Positions 4,504-42,445 of a stretch of DNA of 42,445 nucleotides are shown here, piece after piece. The position numbers and the translations under genes are program-made. The stretch's first letter is position 1, and each line of letters opens with the position of its first letter. The notes below the pieces were generated by a model, which did not search any database, was not told the origin of the DNA, and worked only from the letters and a program-made list of their open reading frames with translations. This DNA is from a virus (taxonomy: Duplodnaviria > Heunggongvirae > Uroviricota > Caudoviricetes), in the IMG/VR virus record IMGVR_UViG_2693429518_000021. One strand, written 5' to 3'.

Positions 4504-5517
4504 TCAACAGATGAGGTCGTATCCTGTGCATTCCATAAACGAGCGGATGAATGTTGCGGCAGCTGGTGCGACTATCGCGTTGCCGTAGGCGCGCAGTCGT
4601 CCCACTCTGGAGGTAATCCCATGAGCCAACGGGAATGTGCCGGATTCAACTGGCCGCCAGCGACCATCCCGGCAGAGGAGCCAGTCAGCATCATCCCAGC
4701 AGCTGTTAATCGTATTGGGCCGCCGAGGGTCGTTCCCCGTTTGGTATGATTGGCCGCTGCGCCCTCGCCACGAACTTTGTTGTTGTCGACCGTCGTCACT
4801 GTCGGCCATCCCGCTAATCTGGATAGCCCCGCTAAGGTTTCTAGACCGCGTTTTGTCTCCGGCTGTGGGTTTGTGTTGCAGGTTGGGGTGTACCACCCCG
4901 CCAGGTGAGCAAAATCCCGCAGGGAGCTGTGTAGCGTGTTGCCGGACGGTCGACGATCTCCAGACATCTTCCTCAATGCTATTGAGGCGCTTTCGCCACC
5001 GCTGTGGTCGCTCGCCGCTGGCATCGGCCACCCAATACGCTCTATCTCGGATATGCGGGGCACCGACGCCCGCAGCCGGAAACGGGACAAGCCCAAAGGC
5101 GTAGTCCACTGCTTCCACGTCAGTTTGTACAAGATCGAACCAGGCATTGACTCCCGCAACCTGTTCGCCAAATACCAGCTCAGGGCGTCGCTCGCTGATG
5201 AGGTGGAATAGCGCTGGCCATAGGTGCCGCTCGTCATCAAATCCAGCGCCTTTACCAGCCGAGCTGAAAGGCTGGCACGGGCAACTTCCTGTCCAGACCG
5301 GTTTGTTATCCGGCCATCCGGCCAGACGCAGAGCATAAGACCAGACGCCGATCCCGGCGAAGAAATGGCACTGTGTGAATCCGCGCAAGTCGTCTGGTGC
5401 GACATCTTCGATACTCCTTTCATCAACTTCACCCGGGGCGATATGACCCGCAGCAATAAGGTTACGCAGCCATTGTGCTGCGTTAGGGTCTATTTCGTTG
5501 TAATAGGCTCCCCGCAC
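4504..5517 (-). CDS. DNA (cytosine-5)-methyltransferase
   Basis: 337 aa with C5-MTase motifs in canonical order: motif I FFAGIG, motif [11 protein letters not shown] (catalytic Cys), motif VI FGEQV (ENV-like), motif VIII IRDRAYW, motif X AYGNAIV. Confidence 0.85.
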
Positions 5518-9081: not shown

Positions 9082-9630
9082 TTAAATCAGTGCTTCAGCA
9101 TCAGCACCTTCGCTGATATCGTCGAAATCGTCAGCGCTTGCCACTCCGCCGCCAGCGAATGCATCGCCGTCTCGCAGGAACTGGACTCCGCCTAGTGAGG
9201 CATTAATGCGTTTACCGAAATTATTGTCCTGTGCCCAGATATCGATAACGGCGTTTACATAGCACCCTGCATAGGGACGTCCATCAGCCTGAATAAGTGG
9301 CGAACGATCGCGATCAAGAACAGCTGGGCGCGCTTTGTTAGCAGCATTCAGGAAGAAATTGCCGGGGAAGCCTTCATACTCTGCTTTTTCATCACCATCA
9401 TGCAGGCACAGATTGAGTTTTTTCTCCAGTTGGTTATAAATGGGCTCCCACTTCTCTCCCCATTTTTCCTTCGCTACCTGCTTCATAGCTTTACGGATTT
9501 CTTCCAGTTGTGGGTGTTTGGGTGACATTAAAAATACTGCGGAGAAACGTGGATCGCCTTCGCCGTTTACAGTTTTAGCTTCAAACAGAGACGGGAAGGC
9601 CAGACGAACATTGTTCAGCTTCAGTTTCAT
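9082..9630 (-). CDS. DUF2815-family phage protein, ssDNA-binding-like
   Basis: 182 aa; N-terminal MKLKLNNVRLAFPSLFE and acidic C-terminal tail (DDFDDISEGADAEALI) typical of SSB-like proteins. Confidence 0.5.
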   Translation of the reverse strand: MKLKLNNVRLAFPSLFEAKTVNGEGDPRFSAVFLMSPKHPQLEEIRKAMKQVAKEKWGEKWEPIYNQLEKKLNLCLHDGDEKAEYEGFPGNFFLNAANKARPAVLDRDRSPLIQADGRPYAGCYVNAVIDIWAQDNNFGKRINASLGGVQFLRDGDAFAGGGVASADDFDDISEGADAEALI

Positions 9631-9645
9631 GGGTATTTCCTTAAA

Positions 9646-10947
9646 TCAGATGAGGTCTGCGGTTAGCGTATCGTCGGATACGTCGTCGAAATCATTTACA
9701 GGGTTGATATTGAGTGCGGGGCGTGGGTCTGACTCGGGAACGATGGTGGGTTTACCATCAGCTCGTGTTATCAGTGCCTCGACTTTTGACCAACGGCGCG
9801 GACTGGCCTTTTTGATAAGTTTTTCGGCTTTTGTGGGGCTAATAAGTTTAAAGTCGAATACTTCTTCAGTTTTGTACCTGAACTGGTCCTTCAGAAGTGC
9901 GCGAGCTGCCTCTTCATCACTCCAGGCCCGGTTACCTTGTTTTCCTGTTACCAGTTTAAACCCCGGTACCGGATGTCCGGCATTGAGTTCATTGTGAACC
10001 CGGTCTCGTACTGCCTTTAGCCAGGATTCAATAAAGTCGGCCTGGCTATAGATCTCCGCAAGCTGCTCAATGGTTAACAGAGGTACACGTGCGCTGGCAT
10101 TGGAGATTATTTCGCTGACAGGCTTTGTCAGATCTTCAAAATCGCTGGCCGCTGTTTGTAAATGCTGCATTTTCTGGGCAGTGCAAATAGCTTTTGCTTT
10201 ACAGAAGCGGCACTGTTTTTCTCCAGGTATGAAGTTTTCCAGCGGTAGTGTCTCAATGCCTTCGCATTCAGCAATATTGAGAACAAGGATCGCACTGGTT
10301 GCGGCCTCCAGTGCCCGTTCACCGAAAGACTGAAGTTCCTGTACGGTTAACGACCATTCTGAAACGTGGTTGAGCCTTGGCTGGTGAATAAATAATCTTA
10401 CAGTCTCAAAGTCATACAGCATGCTGAATTGTTCGAGCGCACCCAGAGCATACAGTTGTAGTTGCTCATTTTGTTCTGCATCAATGCGGACGCCTTTGCC
10501 ATATTTCAGGTCGTGGATTTGTAATTCGCTACCAGCAATGATTATGCCGTCGGCAGTTCCGAAAGATTCTTCCACACCCGTTATATGTGAGAAATCAACA
10601 CGTTGTTCAACCAATAGTTCATTATTCTGTGCAAGAGTCCAGACCGTATCAACATACCGGCCAACGGCTTCGACCATTTCATCATCCACCTGTGGGCCAG
10701 ATGTATCATTAGGATTTTCGCGAAGGGGGTATGAGCTGAGAAACATAGAAACATTGCATCCGGCGTAGTGTTCCGGGTAGCTTTGCCTGTTTCGTAGAAC
10801 TTTTTCAGCAAGCGCGTGCGCTGCAGTGCCCTCGATTGCAAAAGTTGTTTCTTTATCCGGTTGTGTGGCCTCCAGCGCCAGACTTCCTGGGCAGCGCATC
10901 CATCGATGCGCTGATGATGGAGAAAGTTGTGCATGAACGTCTGGCAT
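9646..10947 (-). CDS. DUF2800-family PD-(D/E)xK nuclease, Cas4/AddB-like with Cys cluster
   Basis: 433 aa; N-terminal [15 protein letters not shown] matches the DUF2800 signature as I recall it; C-terminal [10 protein letters not shown] cysteines consistent with an Fe-S cluster. Confidence 0.65.
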
Positions 10948-21490: not shown

Positions 21491-22956
21491 TGGCACGAAA
21501 CAAACAAGCCCTGCGGCGAACTGCGCAGGCCACAGCTGATGGTTATGAGAATTTTATTGCCCGCGTAGGGATGCAGACACCTAACCAGCACTCAGCATCC
21601 ACCTACCGGGCTAATTTCACCAGTCGTAACCGCATGCTGGTGGAATGGTCCTATCGTTCATCCTGGATCATCGGCGAAGCAGTCGATGCTATCCCGGATG
21701 ATATGACCCGCAAAGGCATTCGCATCACGTCGGAAATTGATGCAAAAGATCGTGGCATTCTCGAATCACAACTGGATGAGTTGCAAATCTGGGATGCGCT
21801 GAATGACGTGCTGAAATGGTCGCGCCTCTACGGCGGCGCGGTGGGTTTCATCATGATTGAGGGGCAGGCACCAATGACCCCGCTGCGACCCGAAACCATC
21901 GGTAAGGGCAAGTTTAAGGGGATTCTCCCGCTCGACCGCTGGATGATCGACCCGGTACTGACCCGCCGCATTAAAGATATGGGGCCGGACCTGGGTAAAC
22001 CTGAGTTTTACGATGTGGTGACCACAGCAACGGGAATTCCTGCCTGGCGCATTCATCACAGTCGCCTGATTCGCTTTGATGGCGTCACGCTGCCATTTCA
22101 GCAGAAGATGACCGAGAACGAATGGGGAATGTCGGTTGTAGAGCGTATCTGGGATCGTCTTACCGCGTTCGACAGCGCTACTGTCGGCGCGGCGCAGCTG
22201 GTCTACAAGGCGCATCTGCGCACCTACAGCGTGGAGAAGCTACGCGAGCTTATCGCACTTGGTGGTCCTGCGTATGAAGCGTTGCTGAAGAATATCGACC
22301 TGATTCGACAGTTCCAGAGCAATGAAGGTATGACACTCATGGACTCGCGGGATAAGTTTGAAACGCATCAGTACAGCTTCAGTGGTCTGGATGACATCCT
22401 TTCGCAGTTTGCAGAACAGATTAGTGGCGCTGTTGGTATCCCACTGGTGCGGTTGTTCGGACAGTCCCCGAAAGGATTTTCTACCGGCGATGCAGACCTT
22501 GCCAACTATTACGACCGGGTAAGCTCGTTACAGGAGAGGCGTTTACGTCTTCCGGTGCGGCGGATACTGGACATCATGCATCGTTCGGAGCTTGGCAAGC
22601 CGCTGCCGGACGATTTCACGTTTGAGTTTAACCCGCTCTGGCAAATGTCTGATGTCGATCGCTCAACGGTGGCGTTAAACACTACCAACGCAATCAGTAC
22701 GGCGCTGGGTGATGGTCTGATGACACTGAAAGCCGCTATGACTGATTTGCGCGAAAATTCTGACGTAACCGGCATCGGGGCATCCATTACCGACGAGGAC
22801 ATCGAGAATGCCGAAGATGAAGCGCCGCCCGGCATCGGCGAATCTGATGACGAACCGCAGGAACCGTCAGGCGGAAATCCGCTATCGAACCAGCCTACGC
22901 AGGATAGCGCGGGCGGTCGGAGACATCGTAAATGGTCGCTACGATGGTTCAAATGA
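21490..22956 (+). CDS. Portal protein
   Basis: 488-aa ORF following the large terminase with a 1-nt overlap (TGATG); acidic C-terminal region. Confidence 0.7.
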   Translation: MARNKQALRRTAQATADGYENFIARVGMQTPNQHSASTYRANFTSRNRMLVEWSYRSSWIIGEAVDAIPDDMTRKGIRITSEIDAKDRGILESQLDELQIWDALNDVLKWSRLYGGAVGFIMIEGQAPMTPLRPETIGKGKFKGILPLDRWMIDPVLTRRIKDMGPDLGKPEFYDVVTTATGIPAWRIHHSRLIRFDGVTLPFQQKMTENEWGMSVVERIWDRLTAFDSATVGAAQLVYKAHLRTYSVEKLRELIALGGPAYEALLKNIDLIRQFQSNEGMTLMDSRDKFETHQYSFSGLDDILSQFAEQISGAVGIPLVRLFGQSPKGFSTGDADLANYYDRVSSLQERRLRLPVRRILDIMHRSELGKPLPDDFTFEFNPLWQMSDVDRSTVALNTTNAISTALGDGLMTLKAAMTDLRENSDVTGIGASITDEDIENAEDEAPPGIGESDDEPQEPSGGNPLSNQPTQDSAGGRRHRKWSLRWFK

Positions 22957-23581
22957 CAGTATCACGGAAATTATTGAGGCGCTGGAACGCTACAGTGAAA
23001 TCATCACCCCCTGGGCGACAAAGGTCGCGGAAAACTTTACTGCGGACCTAACCCGGCAGAACGAGAAAGTTTGGCGGCAACACAGCAAGAACATCAGTCG
23101 CGAGCTCCGCAATCTTGTGGAAAGCGCTCCTGTGGGCCAGGTGATGCAATCCATCATCGCCGAACAGGTCAAGTACATCAAATCGCTCCCCCTCGAGGCG
23201 GCTGACAGGGTGTACGACATCCAGAATCGGGCGACAGAAGCTGTTGTGACCGGTGGGAGAGCAGAATATTTTGCTAAAGAAATAGCCGCATCGGGTGATA
23301 TAGCAAAGTCCAGAGCTGACCTGATTGCCCGTACTGAACTTGGACGTGCAACCGGCGCGCTGGATCAGGCGCGTGCGCTGTCAATTGGTTCGAATGGTTA
23401 TATCTGGCGTACAGCCGAAGATGGTGACGTCAGGCATTCTCATCGGGAAATGGAAGGTAAATTTGTCGAATGGGGCAAACCTCCAACGCTTGACGGCATG
23501 ACAGGTCACGCTGGCGAGCTCCCGAATTGTCGCTGTTATAAAGAAATCGTTTTTCCCACCTCCCAATCTTATCCCGCCTGA
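22808..23581 (+). CDS. Head morphogenesis protein (Mu F / SPP1 gp7-like)
   Basis: 257-aa ORF with GAGGA Shine-Dalgarno 8 nt upstream of ATG 22808; overlaps the portal 3' end by 149 nt in another frame; assignment by position after portal. Confidence 0.5.
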   Translation: MPKMKRRPASANLMTNRRNRQAEIRYRTSLRRIARAVGDIVNGRYDGSNDSITEIIEALERYSEIITPWATKVAENFTADLTRQNEKVWRQHSKNISRELRNLVESAPVGQVMQSIIAEQVKYIKSLPLEAADRVYDIQNRATEAVVTGGRAEYFAKEIAASGDIAKSRADLIARTELGRATGALDQARALSIGSNGYIWRTAEDGDVRHSHREMEGKFVEWGKPPTLDGMTGHAGELPNCRCYKEIVFPTSQSYPA

Positions 23582-23595
23582 ATCGCAGGTAACAC

Positions 23596-24816
23596 ATGAA
23601 ATATTTTTTCAATACCCGGCTGGGGGAAACCCGCTATCAGCTGGCTGACGGCTCGTTGCTGTGCAGAGACGTGCCGATAGGACGAACAGGTAAGCAGCTC
23701 TATGGTGCTGATGACCTGCCAAAACTGAAACCCGATAAGTTCGGTGAAATAGTCGTCACGCGTTCTCCTGAGCAGGTATTCCATCCGGCCACGCTTGCCT
23801 CATTCGAAGGGATGAGCATCACGATTCTGCATCCTGAAGATGAAAACGGGAATGTGCGGCTGGTAAATCCCGAGAACTGGAAAGAGCTTGCTGTCGGGCA
23901 CCTCCAGAATGTCCGGCGCGGGACGGGTGAGCAGTCTGATTTGATGCTGGCTGACCTTATCGTCAAAGACGAAAACGCCATTCAGCTTATCGAAGATGGC
24001 CTGCGCGAAGTGTCGTGCGGCTATGACGCGGAGTACGAGCAGACCGAGCCAGGTAAAGCTGAGCAGGTCGATATTACCGGAAACCATGTGGCTCTTGTCC
24101 CTAAAGGCAGAGCCGGAAATCGTTGTGCAATTGGAGACAGAGACACAATGGCAAATCAAAAGAAAAACTGGTGGAACCGCATGCGTGCGGCCATCAAGAC
24201 AGGAGATGCCGACACCATGAACGAACTGGTGGAGTCGGCTCCCGCATCGGTTACAGGAGATGAGGGGGATTTGCCGCAGGGCGTTAATCTCAATATCAAC
24301 CTGTCCCCGCAGCAACCACTACCGGACAAAGCACCAGAGATGGGGGGAGGCCCAACCGGCGACAGTGATGATGACCTCAAAACATTACTGAAAGCCCTGC
24401 TGGCTAAGCTGGAAGGAAATGCCACGGGCGATAACGATAATAAGCCTGACGATAATCCGACCGGTGACGGCGAGGACGATGAAGAGGAAACCACGATTAC
24501 TGGTGACTCAGCCTGGCGTGCCGAAGTTATTGTTCCGGGTATCGATCTGAGCCGTAAGATGAAACCGACCGCGTTCAAACGCGAGGTTCTGGCTTCCGCT
24601 GACAAAACGCTGGTTCGCCAGATAGTCGGTGATGCGGATATCCGCAAATTGCCGAAACAATCGGTCGACATGGCGTTTAATGCCGTGTCTGAGATTGCCA
24701 AAGGGCGAAACACCCGCGCCACCACCGGCGATGCACAGCGCCTAAACATGGGCATGACCAGTATCGCTTCCCTGAACAAACAAAACGCTGAATTCTGGGC
24801 AAACCGTAAAGGGTAA
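23596..24816 (+). CDS. Putative prohead protease/scaffold protein
   Basis: 406-aa ORF between the head-morphogenesis and capsid genes; acidic, low-complexity C-terminal half typical of scaffolds; assignment by position only. Confidence 0.4.
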   Translation: MKYFFNTRLGETRYQLADGSLLCRDVPIGRTGKQLYGADDLPKLKPDKFGEIVVTRSPEQVFHPATLASFEGMSITILHPEDENGNVRLVNPENWKELAVGHLQNVRRGTGEQSDLMLADLIVKDENAIQLIEDGLREVSCGYDAEYEQTEPGKAEQVDITGNHVALVPKGRAGNRCAIGDRDTMANQKKNWWNRMRAAIKTGDADTMNELVESAPASVTGDEGDLPQGVNLNINLSPQQPLPDKAPEMGGGPTGDSDDDLKTLLKALLAKLEGNATGDNDNKPDDNPTGDGEDDEEETTITGDSAWRAEVIVPGIDLSRKMKPTAFKREVLASADKTLVRQIVGDADIRKLPKQSVDMAFNAVSEIAKGRNTRATTGDAQRLNMGMTSIASLNKQNAEFWANRKG

Positions 24817-24819
24817 AAA

Positions 24820-25326
24820 ATGAATAATGTATTTCTGTACCGGATGCCTGTTGGTATTGCCGGGGCTGTCTCTCGCCCGCAGGACTTAACCGTCGAACCG
24901 GTGGTCCTTAAATCCGATAACGCCTTCGCTGCCTATGGGCTGGCTGGTAAATACGATGATGACGGTTTTTTCGTGCCGCTGGCAGATGGTGATACCGCAG
25001 ACAAGGTGAAGGGGATCTACGTGCGCCCTTATCCGACCACGTCGCAGCCGGACATGGTTCGCCAGGTGGGAACAGGCAAGAACTTCCCGGGCGACGCCAT
25101 GAAGCGTGGCTACGTGACCGTTAATCTCGGTTCTGATTTTGATGCCAGCACTATCAAAAAAGGCGACCCGGTATACGTTGTCGTCTCCACTGATGAATCC
25201 ATCAAAGTGCCGCTGGGTGGATTCATGTCCACGTCAGTCAGTGGCAAAAATGTGGTGCTGACCAACGCTGAATTCACAGGTGCCGGTGATGCTAACGGCA
25301 ATGCAGAAATTTCCTGGAAGATTTAA
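24820..25326 (+). CDS. Putative head protein (decoration/scaffold-like)
   Basis: 168-aa ORF immediately upstream of the major capsid gene. Confidence 0.4.
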   Translation: MNNVFLYRMPVGIAGAVSRPQDLTVEPVVLKSDNAFAAYGLAGKYDDDGFFVPLADGDTADKVKGIYVRPYPTTSQPDMVRQVGTGKNFPGDAMKRGYVTVNLGSDFDASTIKKGDPVYVVVSTDESIKVPLGGFMSTSVSGKNVVLTNAEFTGAGDANGNAEISWKI

Positions 25327-36605: not shown

Positions 36606-36958
36606 TGCGATACAGACGTGAAGACGCCGATGGCGATTACACCTTTGGCAGCGGTGATGACACCTGGCTGATTAACTCACCGGAGGCCGTGGCGCAGGCG
36701 GTAAAAACGCGATTTGAATTGTGGTATGGGCAATGGTTTCTCGACACCACCGAAGGGACCCCGTGGATCCAGTCTGTGCTCGGTAAGCAGAAGCCGGAAA
36801 CCTACAACCTGGCGATCCGTAAGCGCATCCTCGAAACGCGGGGCGTTAAATCAATCCTCTCTTTCAATACGACGGTGGATACCACGACCCGACGTGTCAT
36901 GTTTTCCGCTGAAATCGACACTCTCTATGGAATAACGACTGTTAAATCGGAGGCGTAA
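36605..36958 (+). CDS. Baseplate protein W-like (gp25/GPW family)
   Basis: 117-aa ORF between V-like and J-like genes; assignment by size and order. Confidence 0.5.
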   Translation: MRYRREDADGDYTFGSGDDTWLINSPEAVAQAVKTRFELWYGQWFLDTTEGTPWIQSVLGKQKPETYNLAIRKRILETRGVKSILSFNTTVDTTTRRVMFSAEIDTLYGITTVKSEA

Positions 36959-38157
36959 TGGCTCTGAACCTTGATTCTCTCGGTTTATCTGCAAAGGTAA
37001 CCGCGGAGGGGATCAGTGCGCCTGATTATCAGACGATACTCAGCACCCTGATTAGCTATTTTCAGCAGATTTATGGCAGTGATGCCTACCTCGAACCGGA
37101 TAGTAAAGACGGCCAGATGGTGGCTCTGATGGCGCTGGCGATTCATGATGCCAATAATACTGCGATAACTGTCTACAACTGTTTTTCACCGGCAACCGGC
37201 TATGGGGCCGCACTGACCAGTAACGTGAAAATAAATGGTATTTCACGTAAAGGCGCGACGAATTCTACGGTTGATTTGCTTCTTACAGGAACTGCCGGAA
37301 CAACCATCATTAATGGCAGCGTGAAAGACAGTAATAGTGTGATATGGCGTTTGCCTGCTTCAGTGGTGGTCGGCGTGGATGGTACAGTGATGGCGACCGC
37401 AACATGTTCCGTCAGTGGTGCAGTGGCGGCGCTGGCTGGAACTATCACTGAAATTAATACGCCAACCCGTGGCTGGGTTTCGGTAACTAATCCTGCTGCG
37501 GCTACTGTTGGCTCTCCGGCAGAAACTGATGCGGAGTTACGTATCCGCCAGTCGCAAAGTGTTGCGTTGCCATCAATAACCCCATTTGAAGCACTGGATG
37601 GTGCTGTTTCTAATGTTACCGGTGTAACCCGCCACAAACTCTATGAAAACGATACTGGTTCGGAGGACGGTAACGGGTTACCGCCACACTCTGTTGCTGT
37701 AATTGTGGATGGCGGTGATGTGATGGATATTGCTCAGGCTATCAGAGGGAATAAAGGCCAGGGGACAGCCACTCACGGTACAACATCCGTTACGGTTCCG
37801 GATAAATACGGCAATCCCCATGTAATCAAATTCTCGCGTTCCAGTGATGTGCCTGTTTATGCCCGGATTAAATTAAAAGTTTTTACGGGTTATACCTCAC
37901 AGATAGGGCAGCAGATCCAGCAGGCTATTTCCGACTATATCAATAGTCTGATGATTGGTGATTCGGTCCTTTTAAGTCGCATTTACTCACCGGCGAATCT
38001 TGGCGTGGTGAGTGGCGGGAATGCACGCTATTACGATATTCAGGAACTGACGATTGGGAAATCTCCGGGGGCTTTGTCGTCATCAAACATTGATATCAGA
38101 TACAACGAATCTGCGTCCTGTACCCCGGAAAATATCGTTATAACGGTGGAGTCATGA
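36958..38157 (+). CDS. Baseplate J-like protein
   Basis: 399-aa ORF in the V-W-J-I-fibre order; its last ~140 codons lie in the duplicated module. Confidence 0.6.
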   Translation: MALNLDSLGLSAKVTAEGISAPDYQTILSTLISYFQQIYGSDAYLEPDSKDGQMVALMALAIHDANNTAITVYNCFSPATGYGAALTSNVKINGISRKGATNSTVDLLLTGTAGTTIINGSVKDSNSVIWRLPASVVVGVDGTVMATATCSVSGAVAALAGTITEINTPTRGWVSVTNPAAATVGSPAETDAELRIRQSQSVALPSITPFEALDGAVSNVTGVTRHKLYENDTGSEDGNGLPPHSVAVIVDGGDVMDIAQAIRGNKGQGTATHGTTSVTVPDKYGNPHVIKFSRSSDVPVYARIKLKVFTGYTSQIGQQIQQAISDYINSLMIGDSVLLSRIYSPANLGVVSGGNARYYDIQELTIGKSPGALSSSNIDIRYNESASCTPENIVITVES

Positions 38158-38834
38158 GCAAATACACCGAACTAATCACGAACTACCACGCCACCAAACC
38201 TAAATTTCTTGCACATGTTGATCTGATGACCCGGCCGCTTATTGATGTTGCGGCGGCCACCAGAGGGCTGATTACTGCATTTGATATTGACTCTGCGGTT
38301 GGTGTGCAACTTGACATTCTGGGATTGTGGATCGGACGTAGCCGTGTTGTCAGCCAGCCTATCTCAGGTGTTTATTTCAGCTGGGATACCGACGGGCTTG
38401 GATATGATCAGGGTGTATGGCAGGGACCATACGATCCTGATTCCGGATACATGTACCTCAGCGATGAAACTTATCGTGTCATCCTTAAAGCGAAGATTGC
38501 GATTAATAACTGGGACGGACGGAATGATTCGCTTCCGGCAATTCTTGACGCGGCAACAGCAGGATCCGGGCTGCGAATGCAGATAGTCGATAACCAGGAC
38601 ATGACGATATCGGTCTGGGTCTTTCCTGATACTGATATTTCAGATGTATCGCGTGAGTTAATTGCGGCAATTAAACAGGGGTATCTCACAGTAAAAGCCG
38701 CCGGGGTATGGGCGGGGGGCATTGAAACTCCTTCGGTGGAAACCCCATCGGAAGGCTCAAAATTTTTTGGTTTTGATATGGATAACGAATTCATCAGTGG
38801 TTTTGATGTAGGAGCATGGGGAGTATTACTCTGA
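38154..38834 (+). CDS. Baseplate/tail protein I-like (copy 1)
   Basis: 226-aa ORF; translation identical to 39972..40652. Confidence 0.5.
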
Positions 38835-39643
38835 TGGCGAAAAATGACTTTAAAGCGTTTGCAACTGATCGAAATGCCAATGTTATGTCGCAGGAGGAAT
38901 GGGAAGCGTTGCCTGCGCTTTTATCCGGATTTACAGCAGGGAAAGCATCCAGTGCGCAGGTGAACAAAGCCATTCGACAGGCCAGCTTTATTGCTGCAGC
39001 TCTGGCCCAGTTTGTAAGTGACAAAACGCAACGGGATGTGCTTGATAATGGTGATCTGCCCGGTTTTGTTGAATTGCTGGGATCGGGGTTTGCTGTTGAA
39101 TACCTGAGCCGCAAGAATCCGTTTGGCGATATCAAATCGGATGGCACTGTGCAAACGGCTCTCGAAAACCTTGGTTTGGGAGAAGGTTCTGCATTACCTG
39201 TTGGTGTGCCTGTTCCGTGGCCTTCAGTCACACCGCCAACAGGCTGGCTGAAATGCAACGGTGCGGCTTTTTCTGCTGAAGAATACCCGGAACTGGCAAA
39301 GGCTTACCCGACCAATAAATTGCCTGATTTACGCGGTGAATTTATTCGTGGCTGGGATGACGGTCGCGGGATTGATACTGGTCGCGCTTTGCTTAATTGG
39401 CAGCCACACACAATTTTGGACCATGCACACTATATGGAATTATGGACAGGGGACGGACTCGCCGCAGGAAGTGCACGGGAAGGAGTAAACCCAGGAATAC
39501 TGGCTACATACGGTGACGGGGGAATAGTTAAAACGGACGAACCCGGTCTTAAAAGGCTATCAGAGGGAATAAAGGCCAGGGGACAGCCACTCACGGTACA
39601 ACATCCGTTACGGTTCCGGATAAATACGGCAATCCCCATGTAA
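38834..39643 (+). pseudogene. Tail fibre gene, copy 1: constant N-terminus plus truncated collar-domain variable cassette, fused out of frame to the duplicated J fragment
   Basis: First ~117 codons identical to fibre copy 2; from 39186 a different C-terminal cassette with tail-collar-like motifs ([23 protein letters not shown]); the frame crosses the junction at 39553/39554 and ends after ~30 unrelated codons. Confidence 0.5.
39159..39184 (+). other. hix/gix/cix-like DNA invertase crossover site, copy 1 (CTCTCGAAAACC-TT-GGTTTGGGAGAA)
   Basis: 26-bp imperfect palindrome with the AAACC-NN-GGTTT core typical of Hin/Gin/Cin sites (from memory); copy identity ends 1 bp after the site. Confidence 0.55.
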
Positions 39644-39975
39644 TCAAATTCTCGCGTTCCAGTGATGTGCCTGTTTATGCCCGGATTAAATTAAAAGTTT
39701 TTACGGGTTATACCTCACAGATAGGGCAGCAGATCCAGCAGGCTATTTCCGACTATATCAATAGTCTGATGATTGGTGATTCGGTCCTTTTAAGTCGCAT
39801 TTACTCACCGGCGAATCTTGGCGTGGTGAGTGGCGGGAATGCACGCTATTACGATATTCAGGAACTGACGATTGGGAAATCTCCGGGGGCTTTGTCGTCA
39901 TCAAACATTGATATCAGATACAACGAATCTGCGTCCTGTACCCCGGAAAATATCGTTATAACGGTGGAGTCATGA
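39554..39975 (+). pseudogene. 3' fragment of the J-like baseplate gene (duplicate, no start)
   Basis: Translation of 39667..39975 is identical to the last 102 residues of the J-like protein; the fragment begins at the duplication junction. Confidence 0.6.
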
Positions 39976-40652
39976 GCAAATACACCGAACTAATCACGAA
40001 CTACCACGCCACCAAACCTAAATTTCTTGCACATGTTGATCTGATGACCCGGCCGCTTATTGATGTTGCGGCGGCCACCAGAGGGCTGATTACTGCATTT
40101 GATATTGACTCTGCGGTTGGTGTGCAACTTGACATTCTGGGATTGTGGATCGGACGTAGCCGTGTTGTCAGCCAGCCTATCTCAGGTGTTTATTTCAGCT
40201 GGGATACCGACGGGCTTGGATATGATCAGGGTGTATGGCAGGGACCATACGATCCTGATTCCGGATACATGTACCTCAGCGATGAAACTTATCGTGTCAT
40301 CCTTAAAGCGAAGATTGCGATTAATAACTGGGACGGACGGAATGATTCGCTTCCGGCAATTCTTGACGCGGCAACAGCAGGATCCGGGCTGCGAATGCAG
40401 ATAGTCGATAACCAGGACATGACGATATCGGTCTGGGTCTTTCCTGATACTGATATTTCAGATGTATCGCGTGAGTTAATTGCGGCAATTAAACAGGGGT
40501 ATCTCACAGTAAAAGCCGCCGGGGTATGGGCGGGGGGCATTGAAACTCCTTCGGTGGAAACCCCATCGGAAGGCTCAAAATTTTTTGGTTTTGATATGGA
40601 TAACGAATTCATCAGTGGTTTTGATGTAGGAGCATGGGGAGTATTACTCTGA
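39972..40652 (+). CDS. Baseplate/tail protein I-like (copy 2)
   Basis: Identical to 38154..38834. Confidence 0.5.
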
Positions 40653-41350
40653 TGGCGAAAAATGACTTTAAAGCGTTTGCAACTGATCGAAATGCCAATG
40701 TTATGTCGCAGGAGGAATGGGAAGCGTTGCCTGCGCTTTTATCCGGATTTACAGCAGGGAAAGCATCCAGTGCGCAGGTGAACAAAGCCATTCGACAGGC
40801 CAGCTTTATTGCTGCAGCTCTGGCCCAGTTTGTAAGTGACAAAACGCAACGGGATGTGCTTGATAATGGTGATCTGCCCGGTTTTGTTGAATTGCTGGGA
40901 TCGGGGTTTGCTGTTGAATACCTGAGCCGCAAGAATCCGTTTGGCGATATCAAATCGGATGGCACTGTGCAAACGGCTCTCGAAAACCTTGGTTTGGGAG
41001 AAGCGGCGAAAAGGGATGTGGGTACAGGAGAAAATCAGATACCGGATATGTCAGCCTGGAAAAGAAATCCGAGTTCTAATCGCTGGAGAAAATTGCCTGA
41101 TGGAACCATCATTCAAATGGGAATATCAGCATCAGGGCCATTAGGCTCACCTGTAAATATCACCCTGCCGATATCTTTCAGCAATACCAATTATTGTGTT
41201 GTTGCATCGTACGATAATGCACGGTCAGGTGTGTCAACAATGGTTAGTTTTGCAGCATTACCTGTTTCACCATCGCAATTTTCCCTGATGTCATCTGTGA
41301 CTGAGCAAGGAGTAAATCCTTTTGCTTACTGGATTGCTTTTGGAGATTGA
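40652..41350 (+). CDS. Tail fibre protein (constant N-terminus plus variable cassette in current orientation)
   Basis: ATG 40652 overlaps the I-like stop (TGATG); sequence diverges from copy 1 after the gix-like site at 41003. Confidence 0.6.
40977..41002 (+). other. hix/gix/cix-like DNA invertase crossover site, copy 2; probable left boundary of the invertible segment
   Basis: Identical to the site at 39159..39184; lies at the constant/variable junction of the fibre gene. Confidence 0.55.
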
Positions 41351-41353
41351 TAA

Positions 41354-41773
41354 ATGGACAGATACTTCTATTCACAAAAAGAAAATGGTTTTTTTACCGA
41401 TTTAAATAAAGCACCTTCAGATGCTGTTGAGATAACCACGGATGAATGGCTGTCACTACTGGATGGTCAGGATAATGGCATGAAAATAGTCAGCAATCAG
41501 GAGGGATATCCGGTTTTGACAGAGCAACCACCTTTATCAAAAGAAAACCTTATTGCATTGGCAGAGTTGAAAAAAGGAAAACTTATTAATGAAGCCAACG
41601 AGCACATGAATAGCAGGCAATGGCCTGGTAAAGCCGCTATTGGTCGTCTGAAAGGTGACGAGCTGGAACAATATAATTTATGGCTGGATTATCTGGACGC
41701 ACTGGAACTGGTTGATATCTCCAGTGCTCCAGATATTGAATGGCCTACGCCTCCGGCAGTTCAGGCCAGATGA
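41354..41773 (+). CDS. tfa: Tail fibre assembly protein (Tfa/U-like)
   Basis: 139 aa; C-terminal motif DISSAPDIEWPTPP typical of Tfa chaperones; directly follows the fibre gene. Confidence 0.65.
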   Translation: MDRYFYSQKENGFFTDLNKAPSDAVEITTDEWLSLLDGQDNGMKIVSNQEGYPVLTEQPPLSKENLIALAELKKGKLINEANEHMNSRQWPGKAAIGRLKGDELEQYNLWLDYLDALELVDISSAPDIEWPTPPAVQAR

Positions 41774-42350
41774 CATCCGGCGCGGTGCTGGTATCTGTTG
41801 CAGTCACCGCGTCAATGTAATCCAGCACAGCGTTAAGCCGGGTTGTTTCTGCCTGCGTCAGCTTCCGCCCGGCCTGTAATTTCAGTTGAATCAGACTAAT
41901 GGAAGCCATTGCAGCATCAATCAGTGACTGACGCTGTGCTTCTGCCGCTTCGACTGCTGCGCTATGCTGTGCCTCAGTATCGGTCACCCATTTCTCACCA
42001 TCCCATTTATCGTATGGCGTTAATGGAGCGATAGTGGTTGTATTTTCAGGGTAATCACCCGGAGCTGTGATTTCTTTTGATTCTCCTGTTTCAGTGCTAT
42101 AGACCGTTTCACCGCGATGGTCTGGCACATATTCCCATGAGTTAAAATCTGCAGAACGGCAAATTGCATAACCAGCTTTATATGAGCCAGGAGCATCTAA
42201 ACAGGAACATGCCGGGATACCGACACCCACAGCAAGATATTCAGTTGATGTGGAAATATATTCCCGTGTCTCACCATCATAATTGTAAACGGTAATGTCT
42301 CCCGCCTTTGTGGTGATGAGTTCGCTATTTAATACAGCTTTATTCATCAT
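41745..42350 (-). CDS. tfa: Tail fibre assembly protein, alternative copy (Tfa'/U'-like), inverted orientation
   Basis: 201 aa; resembles lambda Tfa as I recall it (EYVPDHRGETVYSTETGE, DTSTAPDVIWPELP); convergent with and overlapping the plus-strand tfa by 29 nt. Confidence 0.7.
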   Translation of the reverse strand: MMNKAVLNSELITTKAGDITVYNYDGETREYISTSTEYLAVGVGIPACSCLDAPGSYKAGYAICRSADFNSWEYVPDHRGETVYSTETGESKEITAPGDYPENTTTIAPLTPYDKWDGEKWVTDTEAQHSAAVEAAEAQRQSLIDAAMASISLIQLKLQAGRKLTQAETTRLNAVLDYIDAVTATDTSTAPDVIWPELPEA

Positions 42351-42445
42351 GCGGCCCTTACGATATAATTAAAAGCGATGTTACGAGGACGAGTTTCTGT
42401 ACCTACATTTTCACTAATTTCACCATAACGTTTAACACTACGAGA
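42345..42445 (-). CDS. 3' end of an alternative tail-fibre variable cassette (partial; continues beyond the window)
   Basis: Minus-strand frame is open from the window edge (...SRSVKRYGEISENVGTETRPRNIAFNYIVRAA) to a TGA overlapping the Tfa' start (ATGA). Confidence 0.5.

Follow-up and report, generated by a model that had tools for sequence, protein, structure and literature searches.

Left part of a probable Pin-type invertible tail-fibre segment, closely related to the e14 P segment, at a contig end in an Escherichia coli prophage

INTRODUCTION

In the host-range switches of phages Mu (G segment) and P1 (C segment), a constant 5′ part of a fibre gene is followed by two opposed pairs, each consisting of a 3′ cassette and an assembly gene. 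Inverted sites bound the segment, and a serine invertase is encoded next to it, outside the segment. The invertible segments of Mu and P1 are about 3 to 4 kb long.

A third switch of this type, the P segment of prophage e14 in E. coli K-12, has the gene order stfP-tfaP-tfaE-stfE-pinE (Plasterk and van de Putte 1985, as cited in PMC4272514). Its inversion by PinE, the occurrence of both orientations in clonal cultures, and its inversion in trans by PinQ have all been published (PMC4272514; PMC12529663), and mixed orientations are normal for such switches (PMC4272514). PinQ, which flips the e14 P segment in trans, is encoded by the Qin prophage (Kirigo et al. 2025, PMC12529663).

Here, we analyzed a viral DNA stretch of 42,445 nt (IMG/VR record IMGVR_UViG_2693429518_000021), hereafter the window, whose right end had been annotated from its sequence as the start of an invertible fibre region. 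We conclude, with high though not full confidence, that this end carries the left two-thirds of a Pin-type invertible tail-fibre segment in a myovirus-like E. coli prophage, that the segment is probably inverted by an invertase acting in trans, and that DNA of mixed orientation most likely lies behind a false repeat just upstream. The system is already known: it is a Hin/Gin/Cin/Pin switch closely related to the P segment of e14.

RESULTS

Source sequence and prophage setting

The window derives from CYAH01000005.1, a GenBank draft contig of 244,361 bp (assembly GCA_001284785.1) that ends at window position 42445. At the left end of the window (positions 1-261 and 470-1873), the sequence opens exactly where the host gene yfhL ends, and the prophage integrase follows. 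Prophage content in the window comprised the integrase, a DNA polymerase, VapE, terminase, and head and contractile-tail genes, and the yfhL-yfhH interval is the prophage site in the relatives. Nine complete E. coli genomes, including 2011C-4251, SJ7, and other O103:H2-type and related strains, matched the terminal 2,892 nt (window 39554-42445) at 100% identity. Our best explanation includes a host of the E. coli O103:H2/O45:H2 group and a myovirus-like prophage integrated between yfhL and yfhH. A minor head protein gene (window about 22847-23582; positions 24129-24864 of the SJ7 locus, L002) is annotated as frameshifted in strain SJ7, and the prophage may therefore be defective apart from the switch.

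Genes and cassettes of the segment

The features at the right end of the window, with the upstream limit of the tail operon, were as follows (Sc, constant 5′ part of the fibre gene; Sv and S′v, the two variable cassettes).

36958-38157, plus strand: baseplate J gene (Pfam Baseplate_J, E 7.2e-15; named baseplate J/gp47 in the annotation of identical relatives), marking the upstream boundary of the late tail operon, which continues into the fibre gene
40652-41350, plus strand: Sc::Sv, the form of the fibre gene in the orientation shown; ORF of 232 aa identical to WP_001096968.1, "gp53-like domain-containing protein"
40977-41002, no strand: left crossover site, 26 bp, CTCTCGAAAACCTTGGTTTGGGAGAA, with the exchange point at the central TT (40989-40990)
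41004-41350, plus strand: variable cassette Sv, the receptor-binding C-terminus, departing from the S′v copy at exactly 41004
41354-41773, plus strand: tfa (TfaP-like), tail-fibre assembly gene for Sv, 139 codons (Caudo_TAP, E 1.3e-25)
41745-42350, minus strand: tfa′ (TfaE), tail-fibre assembly gene for S′v, 201 codons (Caudo_TAP, E 2.5e-33; annotated tfaE in relatives)
42347-42445, minus strand: S′v cassette, last 32 codons plus stop, translating without an internal stop and cut by the contig end

The fibre gene starts at the ATG at 40652 in the RefSeq relatives, within a longer ORF that opens at 40634, and its C-terminus matched Pfam Gp53-like_C (E 4.7e-13). The two assembly genes are convergent, and their 3′ ends share 29 nt (41745-41773). 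Each cassette is thus followed by its own assembly gene, and the Caudo_TAP genes lie on opposing strands. The final 99 nt (42347-42445, minus strand) encode SRSVKRYGEISENVGTETRPRNIAFNYIVRAA*, which is the C-terminus of the alternative Sc::S′v fibre of E. coli O103:H2 str. 12009; the full-length form of this fibre carries a Collar domain (Pfam). These ORFs and Pfam matches bore out the initial annotation, which had placed a fibre cassette, tfa, and a convergent tfa′ at these same coordinates, and the translation at the edge confirmed that the minus-strand piece there is the 3′ end of a second cassette.

Crossover sites

The left crossover site lies inside the fibre gene, so that the constant 5′ part is joined to one of two 3′ cassettes. 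The Sc::Sv gene (40652-41350) and an Sc::S′v reading frame further upstream (38834-39552) have 117 codons in common and split one base past the site; the cassettes first differ at 41004, whereas the actual exchange is at the central TT. The left site, CTCTCGAAAACCTTGGTTTGGGAGAA, matched the two-half-site Hin/Gin/Cin/Pin consensus with one mismatch. When the whole window was scanned with a Din-family crossover-site consensus, matches were found only at 40977-41002 and at the duplicate 39159-39184, with 0.02 expected by chance.

Neither the right repeat nor a recombinase is seen in the window itself, because the source contig ends at 42445. The right repeat had been predicted to lie just beyond that position, and in the identical relatives it does: in 2011C-4251, an inverted site, TTCTCCCAAACCAACGTTTATGAAAA, was found 397-422 nt past the window end. 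Inverted 26-bp sites of the family type accordingly bound the segment, the left one in the window and the right one in the relatives. Both were base-for-base identical to the two P-segment sites of K-12 prophage e14. The left site (40977-41002) includes the published e14 repeat TTGGTTTGGGAGAAG, and both sites contain the repeat TTGGTTTGGGAGAAGG reported for e14 (PMC12529663). Judging from the relatives, the right site and the adjacent invertase gene are probably present in the source strain as well.

Inversion among relatives

Past the window end, the 2011C-4251 genome continues with the rest of the second cassette (minus strand), the right site, pinE, and one more gene, and then reaches host yfhH. 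In O103:H2 str. 12009, the same prophage has the segment reversed, with the order Sc::S′v, tfaE (plus), tfa (minus), Sv (minus), pinE. The 1,865 bp between the site centres of 2011C-4251 are the exact reverse complement of those in 12009, and the flanks compared (3,000 nt to the left and 2,000 nt to the right) are identical; the segment has therefore been inverted at these sites. Of the complete genomes whose junctions matched the window at 100% identity, nine carried Sc::Sv and three carried Sc::S′v. Both orientations thus occur in the relatives, and both left junctions are also found within the source scaffold.

The adjacent invertase gene

Extension to the right through the relatives recovered both the partner site and pinE within the approximately 2 kb in which they had been sought. 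A serine recombinase of approximately 190 aa had been expected there, and its place is indeed taken by pinE (478-1031 nt past the window end in 2011C-4251; positions 9370-9923 of that locus, L001), 56 nt outside the right site, though in pseudogene form. The gene has a −1 frameshift after about codon 100, where ...DSIDTSTPM is followed by a frame reading RFFFHVMGALAEMERELI..., and its sequence is identical in 2011C-4251, SJ7, and 12009 (L001-L003). With one base restored, the product gave Resolvase (E 1.9e-52) and HTH_7 domains and 91% amino acid identity to e14 PinE. The frameshifted allele, 554 nt long, is shared by 14 complete genomes, among them ETEC H10407 and strains of opposite orientation. 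Related pin alleles of about 92-95% identity measure 555 nt, as does the intact gene of e14. At least one further pin-like place was present in every one of the 14 genomes. The Fis-dependent recombinational enhancer normally sits in the 5′ part of the invertase gene, and the 5′ 300 nt of pinE in the relatives were undisrupted and 87% identical to e14.

Because the frameshift is common to genomes of either orientation, which otherwise do not differ around the switch, the flip most simply postdates it. On the simplest reading, flipping went on after pinE died, via a putative paralogous invertase acting in trans; it is because the adjacent pinE is frameshifted that we infer such an enzyme for this lineage. 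Given the pseudogene in every genome with this allele, the switch could also be frozen in some strains.

An upstream repeat at a scaffold gap

Window positions 37736-39185 recur at 39554-41003 as an exact direct repeat of 1,450 bp (100% identical, offset 1,818), with the following features.

38834-39185, plus strand: Sc, constant 5′ fibre part, first copy ("contig A" below), identical to 40652-41003 and encoding the N-terminal 117 aa found in both fibre forms
39159-39184, no strand: left crossover site, first copy, 26 bp, CTCTCGAAAACCTTGGTTTGGGAGAA, the same as the e14 left site
39186-39552, plus strand: first 367 nt of S′v, in frame with the preceding Sc and forming the left junction of the flipped state (no mismatch over 394 nt against the Sc::S′v fibre gene of 12009)
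39553, no strand: scaffold gap, N in CYAH01000005.1 and A in the window
39554-41003, plus strand: second copy of 37736-39185 (3′ part of J, DUF2612 gene, Sc) and start of "contig B", a stretch that is single-copy in complete relatives

After the first copy, the order is thus Sc, crossover site, S′v nt 1-367 (39186-39552), base 39553, and then J from nt 37736. Base 39553 is the sole difference between the window and CYAH01000005.1 over the last 12,779 nt, and it fits neither S′v (T) nor gene J (C). As written, the repeat yields two copies of the DUF2612 gene and a 102-codon J fragment (39667-39975), together with a chimeric ORF (38816/38834-39643; 269/275 codons) in which S′v runs into out-of-frame J sequence. 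Exact look-ups of the chimeric protein (269/275 aa) returned no match, the source contig being retrieved only by way of the 102-aa J fragment, and a 37-nt junction around 39553 had no match in viral, species-representative genome, and metagenome contig collections.

Because the source record has an N at the junction, we read the repeat as a scaffold join. Most likely, the scaffolder joined two contigs that overlap by 1,450 nt, one per orientation, where contig A would end in the Sc::S′v junction and contig B would carry the Sc::Sv junction. The cause of the join was most likely that the sequenced DNA held both orientations. Contig A stops at S′v nt 367 and contig B at S′v nt 396, and the 28 nt between them are TGTGCCTTCCTCACTACGAGCTATTAGC. 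A mixed population does not by itself explain these two stops, or the start of contig B at J nt 37736; as a speculation, repeated scaffolding and gap-filling might have made a run-on extension of 1,450 nt. Two other sources for the extra sequence were considered and rejected. A second related prophage as the origin of the second J-W-Sc copy does not agree with the single copy in the relatives, and a second S′v allele was dismissed, as the sole mismatch with SJ7 corresponds to the C/G position at which the outer half-sites differ.

Some local sequence features near the contig ends were also noted. The 28 missing nt (S′v nt 368-395; positions 4954-4981 of the 12009 locus, L003) overlap a perfect 9-bp hairpin, CACTACGAG ... 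CTCGTAGTG, and hold its loop and one of its arms, the other arm lying just inside contig B. In three unrelated assemblies (L006 1-109, L007 1-27, and L013 1-29), ends that by their terminal repeats are IS3-family or IS2-like abut J at 37735, 37750, and 37758, and the junction between IS end and J in L006 is no more than 1-2 nt away from where contig B starts (J nt 37736). In another locus (L011), an IS66-type transposase gene (Pfam DDE_Tnp_IS66) lies directly upstream of the point where J homology begins (37845), and in L005 transposase genes (HTH_Tnp_1, rve) break J at 37315-37319. The baseplate J gene may be an insertion hot spot, and an IS element in the source strain could be involved at the contig ends, for example hidden in the 1-N gap.

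Alternative explanations

The 1,818-bp repeat could instead be a real tandem duplication that formed in the flipped orientation and whose distal copy was then inverted. In that case, a normal switch would be preceded by a truncated third cassette (Sc::S′v 1-367) and an additional DUF2612 gene. The order of the parts fits a duplication plus one inversion, some read pairs must have linked the contigs since the scaffolder set them adjacent, and one contig end lies near where the repeated S′v would begin, as expected if S′v 1-367 were present twice. Against this, the junction base is N, so that no read-derived sequence crosses from one copy to the other, and none of 5,426 complete E. coli genomes had the 39553/39554 junction or a second Sc copy, including the 12 with identical junction sequences. 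A 100% identical repeat of 1,450 nt is, moreover, normally beyond a short-read assembler and is exactly what overlapping alternative contigs would give. We therefore regard a real duplication as unlikely.

It was also considered whether the segment is a fossil, with pinE dead and both orientations old, in which case the Sc::S′v contig would come from contamination or from a mixed culture of two strains. The frameshift in 14 of 14 genomes with this pinE allele agrees with such a history, as does the putative status of the trans-acting invertase. However, genomes of opposite orientation show no difference in the segment or in the 5 kb of flanks compared and carry the same frameshift, so the flip is most simply later; both junctions were found in one read set; each genome has other pin-like genes; and trans action of family members is known for the e14 sites, to which those here are identical (PMC12529663). 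These points make a fossil segment rather improbable, a little more so than the duplication. Least credible, to the point of being practically dismissed, is that there is no invertible element at all and that a prophage end has simply collected mosaic debris, namely the partial cassette and the two convergent assembly genes. Fragments of fibre genes are common at the ends of prophages, and the window alone has only one site per copy. However, the relatives differ by an inversion that is exact at matching 26-bp sites, which already refutes this reading, and these sites are identical to the experimentally studied sites of e14.

Proposed switch

For the preferred reading, a Pin-type switch flipped in trans and sequenced in both orientations, the following course is proposed. 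The late tail operon would read through J, the DUF2612 gene, and Sc (117 codons) into the segment; a promoter and terminator scan of 38700-42445 gave nothing relevant to the switch above shuffled expectation. In the orientation shown, Sc would be fused to Sv and followed by the chaperone gene tfa. Recombination of 40977-41002 with its inverted partner, approximately 0.4 kb past the window end, would flip the 1,865-bp segment, and in the flipped state Sc would be fused to S′v and followed by TfaE. Each state would provide one fibre tip with its matching chaperone, leaving the other pair promoterless, and the alternative tips would be expected to change receptor specificity. An invertase encoded elsewhere in the genome probably does the flipping here. 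With both orientations in the sequenced DNA, a scaffolder would have strung the two versions together, which would give the apparent 1.8-kb tandem repeat.

DISCUSSION

As a textbook host-range switch, of which identical copies are already annotated (pinE, tfaE) in RefSeq, the locus has little discovery value in itself. The analysis adds three things: it recognizes a scaffolding artefact, finds that the crossover sites are identical to those of e14, and shows that the local invertase is dead in the relatives. An invertible segment from a mixed population can be scaffolded as a false tandem duplication, and the only trace here is a single N, which appears as A in the window. If the inference of a trans-acting enzyme holds, a dead local invertase together with the persistence of both orientations would be a natural case of reliance on an invertase in trans. 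It could further be hypothesized that this lineage lost its own invertase and keeps flipping by the invertase of another prophage, so that the switch may be kept by the host and not by the phage; we consider this a doubtful idea, with the odds clearly against it. If true, the host might keep the switch, for example, since one fibre form blocks the adsorption of other phages, as has been reported for the e14 chimera StfE2.

Among known switches, those of Mu (G segment, Gin) and P1 (C segment, Cin) follow the same logic. The initial annotation had proposed their Sv-U-U′-S′v arrangement, and the ORFs and the relatives confirmed it, as the order Sc, Sv, tfa, tfa′ (minus), S′v (minus), pin is the layout of Mu G, P1 C, and e14 P alike. 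The likeness to Mu and P1 holds for the layout, but e14 Pin is closer, and the crossover sites are identical to those of e14. The segment here is also shorter (1.9 kb) than those of Mu and P1, and the fibre is far shorter (232/281 aa). At the DNA level, neither Mu nor P1 appeared among the best phage matches listed, and these two were compared by layout; the closest sequences among the matches listed were e14 and P2-like tfa genes.

Compared with e14, the gene order is the same and both 26-bp sites are identical. Amino acid identity was high for tfa′ against TfaE (94%) and for Pin with one base restored against PinE (91%), and lower for S′v against StfE (59%), tfa against TfaP (55%), and Sv against StfP (40%). 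The e14 segment measures 1,797 bp (PMC12529663) versus 1,865 bp between the site centres here, although the end points used may differ. While pinE is intact in e14, it is frameshifted in the nearest relatives here. The settings differ too: e14 sits at icd and has DUF2313 (ymfQ) in its baseplate module, whereas here a full-length prophage lies at yfhL-yfhH and has DUF2612. Similarity to e14 at the DNA level was confined to three blocks. An 87-bp block around the left site (window 40925-41011; L001 7372-7458) was 96.6% identical to e14, and the flanking fibre and baseplate sequences were unrelated. On sequence grounds, the boundary between the constant and variable parts is a sharp mosaic joint, and since the 87-bp block is shared with e14 but the baseplate genes are unrelated, the switch appears as a mosaic module common to different tail gene sets. 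The closest parallel to the proposed mode of inversion is PinQ, in that an invertase from elsewhere flips a segment bounded by the repeat TTGGTTTGGGAGAAGG, as a putative trans-acting enzyme would do here.
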